64,000 nucleotides of DNA. It comes from Escherichia coli O127:H6 str. E2348/69 (lineage in GTDB: Bacteria; Pseudomonadota; Gammaproteobacteria; Enterobacterales; Enterobacteriaceae). Below are positions 20,480 to 51,757 of this stretch, piece by piece. The translations under genes and the position numbers were made by a program. Each line of letters opens with the position of its first letter. Positions within the stretch are counted from its first letter, which is position 1. The notes beneath the pieces were generated by a model, which worked only from the letters and a program-made list of their open reading frames with translations, was not told the DNA's origin and made no database searches. The stretch lies in assembly GCF_000026545.1 (NCBI RefSeq), contig NC_011601.1; one strand, given 5' to 3'.

Positions 20480-20570
20480 TAATTCACCCTCTTCAAACAG
20501 AAGAGGGTGAATTATCCGTAGGCCGGGCAAGCGTGGCGCTCCCGGCAAAACGTAAACAACGAGTACATTA

Positions 20571-37867: not shown

Positions 37868-37900
37868 AAAACGCCGACCAGTGGTCGGCGTTTTGCTTTT
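37868..37900 (+). terminator. Intrinsic terminator of the rpsF-priB-rpsR-rplI operon
   Basis: CGCCGACCA-g-TGGTCGGCG perfect 9-bp stem followed by TTTTGCTTTT. Confidence 0.85.
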
Positions 37901-49270: not shown

Positions 49271-49891
49271 ATGACCACCCCAACTTTTGACACCATCGAA
49301 GCGCAAGCAAGCTACGGCATTGGTTTGCAGGTAGGGCAACAACTGAGTGAATCTGGCCTGGAAGGGCTGCTGCCAGAAGCACTGGTTGCAGGCATTGCCG
49401 ATGCGCTGGAAGGCAAACATCCGGCTGTTCCGGTTGATGTGGTGCACCGCGCGCTGCGTGAAATCCACGAACGCGCCGATGCCGTTCGTCGTCAGCGTTT
49501 CCAGGCGATGGCTGCTGAAGGTGTGAAATACCTGGAAGAAAACGCCAAAAAAGAAGGTGTAAATAGCACCGAATCTGGCCTGCAATTCCGCGTGATCAAC
49601 CAGGGTGAAGGCGCAATTCCGGCACGTACCGACCGCGTTCGTGTTCATTACACCGGAAAACTGATCGACGGCACCGTGTTTGACAGCTCCGTTGCTCGCG
49701 GCGAGCCAGCTGAATTCCCGGTTAACGGCGTGATCCCTGGCTGGATTGAAGCACTGACTCTGATGCCGGTAGGTTCTAAATGGGAACTGACTATCCCGCA
49801 GGAACTGGCATATGGCGAGCGTGGCGCAGGCGCGTCCATCCCTCCGTTCAGCACCCTGGTGTTTGAAGTCGAACTGCTGGAAATCCTCTAA
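49271..49891 (+). CDS. fklB: FKBP-type peptidyl-prolyl cis-trans isomerase FklB
   Basis: ORF 49112..49891; start at [22 protein letters not shown] (ATG 49271); FKBP domain. Confidence 0.93.
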
Positions 49892-49919
49892 GCAGCGCAT
49901 TCTGTTCCCCTCGAACCAG

Positions 49920-51469
49920 CTGTCTCTTATACACAAATCCCCACCCGGGGATTTGTGATGTCTGTCAGTCTGCTTTAGGGGGACTCTTTCCATCCGGTAG
50001 TTTCCTTCCTCCCCGGCAGCGATTTTTTGAACTTTTTCCTCACCTGTTGATCTTCTCTTATATTTCATTTTCTTCGGGTCTGTTATGGTACTTTCTGATT
50101 GTTATTCATGGGCTAACGAGCAGTTTGGACATGCCCGTCTCGGTGATCCGCGTCGTACACGACGCCTTGTGTCACTGGCCTCTTCTCTCGCTCAGCATGC
50201 AGGTCTTTCTATTGTGAAATCATCCCAGTCCACTGCTCAGGTTGAAGGTGCGTACCGCCTGATACGTAACCCGTCTGTGTCCCCGCAAGCCATTGCCGAA
50301 GCCGGATTTACCGCCACTGTAAGGGCATGTGAGGCTCATCCGCTGCTCCTCGCGCTGGAAGACACCACCACCATTAACTTCAGTCACAGTACGGCATCTG
50401 ATGACCTGGGGAATACCACCACTAACCCGAAGACGCGCGGGCTGCTGGCTCACTCTGTCCTGATGTACGCCCCCGACAGCGCCCTGCCAGTCGGTCTTAT
50501 CGAACAGCAGCGCTGGAGTCGTGCCACGGACACCTACGGTGTTAAGCACCAGCGAAAAGAACGTCCCTATGAAGAAAAAGAAAGTTACCGCTGGCAGCAG
50601 GCTTCGGAGCGCATGGCCGAACGGCTGGGGGAGATACAGAAACGGGTAATCACTGTCTGTGACCGGGAAGCGGATATCTGGCATTACCTGCATTATAAAG
50701 TCAGCCACGGGCAGCGCTTCGTGGTGCGTGCAGCACAGAATCGCCGGCTGGAAGAAGCACCCGGCAAGCTCTTCGAACTGCCGGAAGTCCTGGCAACCGC
50801 GGGAAGCCACACGCTGAATGTGATGCAAAAAGGCGGGCGGGCAGCCCGCCAGGCCCGGATGTTCATCAGTTACAGCGAAGTCAGCATAAAAAATCCCGAC
50901 AACAGCGGCCAGGCGCTCCCGCTCACGTATGTCTGTTGCCGGGAGCAGGCAGAGGACGGCGCCTGCTGGCATCTGCTGACGTCAGAAAAAGTGGCGAGTG
51001 CCGCCGATGCGCGACGTATCGTCAGCCATTACGAGCGACGCTGGCTGATAGAGGAATACCACAAGGCGTGGAAAAGTGGTGGTACATGTGTGGAATCGCT
51101 GTGAATGCAGACCCGGGATAACCTCGAGCGCATGGTGGTTATCAAGGCGTTTATCGCGGTGCGGGTGCTGGGCCTGCGGCAGGGCGGTATCAGTGAAGAA
51201 ACACAAAATGACAGCTGTGAGAAAATACTGACGCCGACAGAGTGGAAACTGCTGTGGGTTAAGCTGGAAGGAAAACCGCTTCCGTCACAGATGCCGACAC
51301 TGAAATGGGCCTGTCTGAAACTGGCGAAACTGGGGCGATGGCATGACAGCAAACGCACCGGTCGCCCCGGTTGGGTAGTCATGTGGGATGGCTGGTTCAG
51401 ACTTCAGGATATGGTTGAGGGTTACCTGGTGATGAAGTCTCTTGATCAGGAGATCTGATCAAGAGACAG
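49920..51469 (+). mobile_element. IS50-like insertion sequence (IS4 family), ~1.55 kb, with terminal inverted repeats and ~9-bp flanking direct repeats
   Basis: Left end CTGTCTCTTATACACAAAT (49920-) and right end AGATCTGATCAAGAGACAG (-51469) match IS50 OE/IE-type ends; flanks CGAACCAG at 49912-49919 and 51470-51477; internal transposase homologous to Tn5 Tnp. Confidence 0.85.
50085..51458 (+). pseudogene. IS50-like DDE transposase interrupted by in-frame TGA (339-aa + 117-aa fragments)
   Basis: ORFs 50085..51104 and 51105..51458 share one frame, separated by TGA at 51102-51104; Tn5-Tnp-like motifs GDPRRT, ALEDTT, CDREADI, RWLIEEYHKAWK in the first part and DNLERMV / DSKRTG in the second. Confidence 0.8.
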
Positions 51470-51757
51470 CGAACCAGAGGGGAGCAGACATTCAGCAATA
51501 AACCCTTCAGTTTGCCAAACGGCGCTATTTTGTGTTGCAAAGACCCCGTAAGCGTGTATTTTTGTGAGCTGTTTCGCGTTATCACCGTGATATGACACTC
51601 ACTTTAAACATAAAATTAACATTAGATCTAAATCTTAGTATTCATACCGCGTATTGTTACCTAATATCGATGAGTCCCGATACAGATTCGTCGTATCATA
51701 GACTGACTAAAGGCCGTAGAGCCTGAACAACACAGACAGGTACAGGAAGAAAAAAAC

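Follow-up and report, generated by a model that had tools for sequence, protein, structure and literature searches.

The left-end hairpin of ISEc13 as the counterpart of a covarying, probable inward-facing terminator in the Tn5/IS50 group

The subject of this study is ISEc13, an insertion sequence (IS) of the IS4 family and the IS50/Tn5 group, which lies in a 64,000-nucleotide stretch of Escherichia coli O127:H6 str. E2348/69 (hereafter the window, matched by that genome at 100% identity). A perfect 11-bp stem with a short loop overlaps the left end of the element, and we propose that this hairpin probably represents, in ISEc13, an intrinsic (rho-independent) terminator facing inward, which a large clade of the Tn5/IS50 group has in common. 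What carries the proposal is the hairpin itself, its homology to structures across the clade, the covariation of its pairs, the asymmetry of these pairs between strands and its position relative to the transposase open reading frame (ORF); termination activity, the position of the promoter that it would shield and a benefit to the host are what we infer from them.

The left-end hairpin and its homologues

The two arms of the hairpin, CACAAATCCCC (49932-49942) and GGGGATTTGTG (49947-49957), form 11 perfect pairs, with four central G-C pairs, around the loop ACCC (49943-49946), and by themselves fold with -17.5 kcal/mol. RNA of positions 49920-49975 folds with -22.1 kcal/mol (z = -4.8), a stability that none of 200 shuffles equalled, and the window holds four distinct perfect hairpins with stems of at least 11 bp and loops of 3-8 nt, two of them inside ISEc13, against 0.2 on average in block shuffles of the window. 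The hairpin is a non-chance feature. The initial annotation was right about the perfect 11-bp stem, except that it begins at 49932 rather than at 49931, A49931 being opposite A49958 and unpaired. Nor does the hairpin directly follow the left terminal repeat, as had been thought; its 5' arm takes in positions 13-19 of the 19-bp end (49920-49938), and the bases at which it was said to end in an ATG (49955-49957) read GTG, the ATG sitting immediately after the stem at 49958-49960. The remaining two perfect hairpins of the window are at 20483-20511 and 37868-37894, and the latter (AAAACGCCGACC...GGTCGGCGTTTT) resembles a bidirectional terminator.

Relatives were collected as the loci of transposase homologues, one genome per species, and contigs were added for transposases of 70-77% identity encoded in Enterobacterales, Salmonella and Serratia. 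About 35 distinct left ends (transposase identity 50-77%), from about 35 other species, have a common layout, CTGTCTCTTATACACAAATCCC-stem-loop-stem-GGGATTTTTTTTGAAC, in which the 19-bp end is followed in order by AAAUCCC, a variable inner stem and loop, GGGAUUU, a run of 6-9 U and GAAC. This U-run leads into the -35 hexamer TTGAAC, and 17 nt beyond it stands GATCNGATC, as in IS50. The consensus structure of 28 aligned sequences consists of 11 pairs, and pairing is kept in 97.7% of the alignment cells as opposed to 83.7% in shuffles, with changes on both sides of a pair in 48 cells where shuffles gave 15.1 (none of 500 shuffles was as high). If the partner column is slid by 1-3 positions, pairing falls to 38-66%. 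In the same alignment G·U occupies 23 cells and A·C just 2, and the selected molecule is therefore plus-strand RNA, that is, transcripts entering the IS, and not DNA or minus-strand RNA.

A covariance model built from the relatives with ISEc13 excluded (R1) matches positions 49920-49962 with 41.7 bits (E = 1.6e-11), pairing AAAUCCCC with GGGGAUUU; the inner three pairs and the loop of the model are missing in ISEc13. We define the clade-wide left-end hairpin here as the structure found in ISEc13, ISPpr3-like and other Tn5-group elements, and ISEc13 belongs to it by homologous position and sequence, AAAUCCC...GGGAUUU after end position 15, with an inner stem that covaries across the clade. No Rfam family matched positions 49700-51700 at E values up to 1.

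The terminator reading and its difficulties

In relatives and in a remnant of an ISEc13-like element in E. coli K-12, between rluA and yabQ, the structure shares with canonical intrinsic terminators a GC-rich stem, a short loop, an upstream A-tract and a downstream U-tract. A terminator-consensus scan flagged it in a relative from Salmonella (L097) and likewise in the K-12 remnant (GGGGATTT TTTGTTTCTG). A score of the d'Aubenton-Carafa type, which serves for ranking sequences only, was positive (+10 to +78) in 28 of 34 relatives with the compact layout, in which the T-run directly follows the hairpin (those used for alignment A4 together with near-duplicates). These observations suggest the following reading. 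In the compact layout, which is probably ancestral, the 19-bp end contributes its A-rich tail (ACAAAU) as the stem base, the GC-rich and freely covarying stem-loop comes next, and the run of 6-9 U ends directly in TTGAAC, the -35 hexamer of what would be a weak, Dam-sensitive promoter of the transposase gene. RNA polymerase arriving from flanking DNA would be released just short of this promoter, and external promoters could thus not drive transposase synthesis. By the same token, a host terminator destroyed by insertion of the element into a hairpin or terminator loop could be replaced by the element's own.

ISEc13 itself departs from this layout. In its lineage, the inner three pairs and the loop would have been deleted, the stem would have grown again to 11 bp through pairs added at its base (CAC with GUG), and about 66 nt would have been inserted between the hairpin and the U-run with its -35 hexamer. 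ISEc13 and the K-12 remnant carry 66-85 extra nt between the hairpin and TTTTTTGAAC (49958-50022 in the window), which all other relatives lack. Over the left end the remnant and ISEc13 are 76% identical; after the hairpin the remnant keeps GGGGAUUUUUUGUUU where ISEc13 has GGGGAUUUGUGAUGU, and the latter lengthens the stem (GUG with the CAC of the end) yet removes the U-tract. The sequence after the ISEc13 stem can be read as UUUGUGAUGU or AUGUCUGU. The stable GC-rich stem with a loop of 3-8 nt is thus present in ISEc13, and the U-tract that relatives (6-9 U) and the K-12 remnant possess is not (4 of 8 positions U in AUGUCUGU). Even counted from the GC core (UUUGUGAU), the ISEc13 tail falls short of the usual U-tract requirement of canonical terminators. 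The ISEc13 hairpin is therefore probably a weak terminator or pause structure at best, and it possibly acts as the apex of a longer stem, in which the CCCCU arm orphaned by the insertion pairs with a G-run inside the element. The K-12 remnant itself (locus L010, 2501-2860) is fixed and decayed; about 1,680 E. coli genomes, K-12 among them, have this left-end fragment, whose canonical terminator-like hairpin is kept just downstream of rluA.

The insert of about 66 nt was also searched for a second, decayed end-plus-hairpin, and model R1 with filters off found nothing there. A local alignment of the insert with the IS50 outside end (GACTCTT-TCCATCCGGTAG / GACTCTTATACA-CAAGTAG) reached p ~0.012 before correction for 7 comparisons, and this weak likeness to an IS50-type outside end (GACTCTTTCCATCCGGTAG, p ~0.01 uncorrected) is suggestive only. 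A second hairpin before the U-run (~49970-50019) is predicted in ISEc13 variants and weakly supported by K-12 remnants, and we do not rely on it.

Several observations weigh against a terminator. In ISEc13 itself the U-tract is degenerate, with T at 4 of 8 positions behind the full stem and at 5 of 8 behind the GC core, the score is about -8 to -32 and a terminator scan of the window did not flag the hairpin. Scores below zero were likewise obtained for six of the 34 compact relatives (L026, L100, L030, L091, L032 and L050), among them about -55 for L030 and -87 for L091, with L032 and L050 scored by hand calculation; in L030, L100, L032 and L050 at least, the negative value arises because the fold of the script runs the stem into the U-run, and two of the six are near-duplicates that were scored but stand outside the A4 alignment. 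ISPlu9-like elements and IS50 have no left hairpin. The dead K-12 remnant retains the hairpin in the absence of selection, so that little can be concluded from finding it conserved among the young ISEc13 copies. The U-run could equally act as an UP-like promoter element. Finally, a promoter scan found no sigma-70-like promoter in the ISEc13 leader, and the promoter and its start (~50062) are placed only by homology to IS50. In this alignment, TTGAAC (50027-32), a spacer of 17 nt and ATCTTC (50050-55) of ISEc13 face CGGAAC, 17 nt and ATCTGA of IS50, in which the T1 transcript starts at nt 66 and the promoter, as studied in constructs, is Dam-sensitive (PMC4265352).

Alternative explanations

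The loss of the U-tract raises the question of whether the hairpin does anything in ISEc13. It may be a functionless relic, in which the insertion of about 66 nt split the terminator from its U-run and the stem survives only because the element is young; this we regard as a real, though distinctly lesser, possibility. The deleted inner stem and missing U-tract are what such decay would leave behind, the ISEc13 copies are 91-100% identical and so offer little evolutionary depth, two mismatches in a truncated copy (AVS0969) are uncompensated, and the dead K-12 remnant keeps the hairpin as well. Decay does not readily account, however, for a stem that is perfect and has gained three pairs (CAC with GUG) relative to that remnant, for A-to-G changes in three variants that preserve a G·U pair, or for the predicted place of the hairpin at the apex of a composite stem of about -40 kcal/mol formed with the flank in read-through RNAs. 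A role at the level of DNA, be it as an extension of the transposase-binding end, a site for a host factor or a cruciform that modulates end usage, appears unlikely. DnaA binds at the Tn5 outside end, and the 5' arm of the hairpin overlaps end positions 13-19 including TTATACACA, the DnaA-box-like motif of Tn5-type ends; the right end likewise has a hairpin that includes the terminal bases. Yet the sequence of the inner stem varies freely while its pairing persists, the preponderance of G·U over A·C selects one RNA strand where G·T mismatches would weaken a cruciform, and the U-run, which is invariant and confined to one side, is a signal of transcription.

The explanation offered by the initial annotation was that the hairpin is a fold-back of the IS50 type, which conceals the start of transposase translation in read-through transcripts. 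RNA structure reportedly blocks the translation of IS50 read-through transcripts, and our folds of IS50 follow the expected trend, the cost of opening the ribosome-binding site being 8.1-9.8 kcal/mol in read-through RNAs and 5.7 kcal/mol in T1 (calculated throughout as the partition-function cost of freeing positions -15 to +4). An ATG does adjoin the stem. That ATG opens merely six codons, however, and the transposase start, at 50085, lies 128 nt downstream of the hairpin, which is also upstream of the weak Shine-Dalgarno (SD)-like GGG (50076-78) and precedes by about 105 nt the start site expected from homology to IS50 P1. With both arms upstream of that site (~50062), the hairpin would be present in read-through RNA only, where it pairs with itself alone and contains neither the transposase SD nor the start codon. 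When read-through and native RNAs were folded, as the annotation had suggested, ISEc13 read-through RNAs with the hairpin gave opening energies of 6.5-8.1 kcal/mol and an RNA starting at 49958, and thus lacking it, 7.6 kcal/mol; the native RNA predicted from IS50 gave 2.4 kcal/mol. The hairpin therefore makes no difference to the predicted accessibility of the ribosome-binding site, and the proposed comparison with the IS50 leader revealed no homologue of the hairpin there. Because the transposase starts at 50085 and its ribosome-binding site is equally accessible with or without the hairpin, sequestration by this structure fails, and we consider it extremely improbable. What does occlude the SD-like GGG, the only one before the transposase ATG, in long transcripts is a different, small helix (ACCUG with CGGGU; Table 1). 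Its 5' arm is upstream of the predicted native start, so that only transcripts initiated upstream can form it, and most ISEc13 variants have ACCCG in place of ACCUG, which gives full Watson-Crick pairing of all five pairs. In these folds, it is this helix that is the nearer analogue of the IS50 structure. Hence, the purpose assigned to the hairpin, shielding of the transposase from flanking transcripts, fits the comparative evidence, whereas hiding of the start codon as the mechanism does not.

The element, its insertion site and its place among known systems

The features discussed here are collected in Table 1. The boundaries of ISEc13 and its 8-bp target duplication are fixed by an exact empty site, as the 193 nt that result from removing positions 49920-51477 are present at 100% identity in other E. 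coli. The termini (CTGTCTCTTATACACAAAT and CTGTCTCTTGATCAGATCT) together with this duplication place the element in the IS50/Tn5 group, the first 9 bp of the left terminus being the inverted repeat of the right one; ends of the form 5'-CTG...CA-A and a target duplication of 8-9 bp are the subgroup features in Table 1 of a published family review (PMC2266710). The transposase is 41% identical to that of IS50R (alignment A3), and its N-terminus, read from 50085, aligns with the Tn5 transposase; the ORF list of the window contains no in-frame start further upstream. It has the DNA-binding, DDE and dimerisation domains of the Tn5 type, with Pfam matches to Tnp_DNA_bind (PF14706, 7.6e-20), Dimer_Tnp_Tn5 (PF02281, 3.5e-6) and DDE_Tnp_1 (PF01609, E 1.6e-4), the last with 22.0 bits slightly missing the curated cut-off of 23 bits. 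In the window copy, an in-frame TGA at 51102-51104 interrupts the gene where intact copies have CGA (Arg); protein P0001 is 100% identical with R at this position, and all eight other ISEc13 copies examined have a stop-free transposase. The window copy is thus non-autonomous, because the TGA inactivates its transposase. The right end also bears a hairpin, found in the same relatives as the left one. ISPlu9-like elements and IS50 lack it and use other codons for the same KS(V/L)D residues. As a terminator the right-end hairpin was rejected, there being no U-run on either strand.

Table 1. Coordinates of ISEc13, its termini and the features of its leader in the window
Feature	Position	Strand	Basis or remark
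ISEc13 (IS4 family, IS50/Tn5 group), 1550 bp	49920..51469	+	100% identity to E2348/69 records; RefSeq 'IS4-like element ISEc13 family transposase', internal stop
Target duplication CGAACCAG, 8 bp	left copy 49912..49919, right copy 51470-51477	.	empty-site reconstruction
Left, outside-end-like 19-bp terminus CTGTCTCTTATACACAAAT	49920..49938	+	17 of 19 positions as in the IS50 outside end CTGACTCTTATACACAAGT
Left-end hairpin, 11-bp perfect stem, ACCC loop; ISEc13 version of the clade hairpin	49932..49957	+	folding, covariance model R1
Six-codon ORF ATG TCT GTC AGT CTG CTT TAG	49958..49978	+	sequence reading; not the transposase start
G-run GGGGG, predicted partner, in read-through RNA, of the CCCCU arm that the split target hairpin leaves behind in the flank	49978..49982	+	minimum-energy fold
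T-run (50023-28) fused to -35 TTGAAC (50027-32)	50023..50032	+	directly follows the hairpin in compact relatives
Small fold-back helix ACCUG (50042-46) / CGGGU (50075-79)	50042..50079	+	predicted pair probability ~1.0 in transcripts starting upstream
Predicted -10 ATCTTC, overlapping Dam site GATC (50049-52); predicted start ~50062	50050..50055	+	alignment with the IS50 P1 region
Transposase gene	50085..51458	+	ORF list and RefSeq annotation place the start at 50085
Right-end hairpin, 13-bp perfect stem of terminal repeat and internal inverted copy	51437..51467	+	spans the transposase stop codon
Right terminus CTGTCTCTTGATCAGATCT	51451..51469	-	19 of 19 bp as in the IS50 inside end (IS50R right end, locus L014)

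ISEc13 inserted into the loop of a strong hairpin directly after the stop codon of fklB (GTTCCCCTC-gaacca-GAGGGGAGC in the empty site, -25 kcal/mol), the duplicated bases being its loop and the top of its stem, and at the E2348/69 locus fklB has lost its own 3' hairpin as a consequence. The reconstructed empty sites of about 25 relatives and of 7 further ISEc13 copies with clean duplications are likewise strong hairpins whose loop is the duplicated sequence (the window at 49895-49919 and 51470-51500; L013, L022, L026, L039, L046-L050, L054-L057, L065, L070, L098-L101 and L105-L109). In ISEc13 and the relatives, the duplication of 8-10 bp comprises the loop and the top of the stem, and many of the targets are canonical rho-independent terminators, for example gaaaaggccaCCTTCGGGtggcctttttttg; those of ISEc13 match CCCCT-N8-AGGGG. 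Since landing in terminators destroys them and exposes the element to read-through, carrying a terminator of its own would make sense. In minimum-energy folds, moreover, the C-run of the flank pairs with the G-run of ISEc13 in about 11 of 14 insertion contexts (the left flanks of L003-L007, L013 and L105-L110 are included), which puts the 11-bp hairpin at the apex of a predicted composite stem-loop of roughly -40 kcal/mol. It is conceivable, and we offer this as a tentative idea only, that the clade is specialised for the loops of host terminators or hairpins like repetitive extragenic palindromic (REP) sequences and carries a built-in repair, with ISEc13 preferring CCCCT-N8-AGGGG. The compact members would supply an inward terminator that is complete and fused to the promoter of the element. 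ISEc13 would instead supply the 11-bp hairpin and, at 49978-82, the G-run that re-pairs with the orphaned CCCCU arm, and a long stem-loop would so be rebuilt at the upstream gene's 3' end. If this were true, a single RNA structure would keep the transposase silent and at the same time reinstate 3'-end formation in the host mRNA, and insertions would be nearly neutral.

Targeting of hairpins is known from elements such as IS1397 and ISKpn1, which insert in the loops of bacterial interspersed mosaic elements (BIMEs), from REP-targeting ISs and from group IIC introns at terminators. ISEc13 and its relatives resemble them in that the bases duplicated on insertion form a strong hairpin's loop, and this hairpin is often a terminator. 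The transposase families differ. ISPpu9, one of the REP-targeting ISs, is located in REP sequences (PMC8450116). For the terminator itself, the closest precedent is that of IS200, to judge by analogy, since position and orientation fit. IS200 has a rho-independent terminator at nt 12-34 of its left end that shields tnpA from impinging transcription and is backed by a second structure hiding the SD (PMC4513863). Similarly, the ISEc13 hairpin occupies nt 13-38 of the left end, upstream of the predicted start of the transposase transcript, and an SD-occluding helix follows further in. IS200, however, belongs to the IS200/IS605 family with its HUH transposase and has no sequence homology to ISEc13, and its terminator is experimentally supported and bidirectional, whereas the hairpin of the ISEc13 clade, known from sequence, has only an inward U-run, fused to the -35 hexamer, that ISEc13, unlike its compact relatives, has lost from its adjacent position. 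With IS50 and Tn5, in contrast, ISEc13 shares homologous ends, a homologous transposase, what would be a Dam-sensitive promoter and the same goal of insulation from outside promoters. The IS50 block is translational, involving a structure with the ribosome-binding region that is lost in the native T1 transcript, and fold-back inhibition of read-through transcripts is also used by IS10. In ISEc13, the ribosome-binding site is entirely outside the hairpin, the whole hairpin precedes the predicted promoter, and the relatives have the U-run of a terminator. In the searchable literature, which leaves out most of the classical Tn5 papers, we found no description of a left-end terminator or of hairpin-loop targeting in the IS50 group. 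In the IS4-family review, the words terminator and stem-loop are never used, and 'hairpin', in the matches listed, refers to a protein beta-hairpin and to the title of an IS200/IS605 reference. Judging by titles and abstracts, the eight papers found to mention ISEc13 are all genomics surveys of resistance or virulence.

No bacterial cut-and-paste transposon has been studied as thoroughly as Tn5, which also serves as a major tool in the laboratory, but the natural relatives of Tn5 have been little characterised. Taken together, our observations suggest that most of the clade shields its transposase gene otherwise than IS50 does, by what would be a covarying terminator between the transposase-binding end and the promoter rather than by a translational block. 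They also imply, at a practical level, that hairpins at ISEc13-type ends should be annotated as part of the element and not as host regulation. Combined with the strong preference for hairpin and terminator loops, a terminator of its own would point to a coherent strategy of low damage, in which these elements land in a terminator and bring their own.

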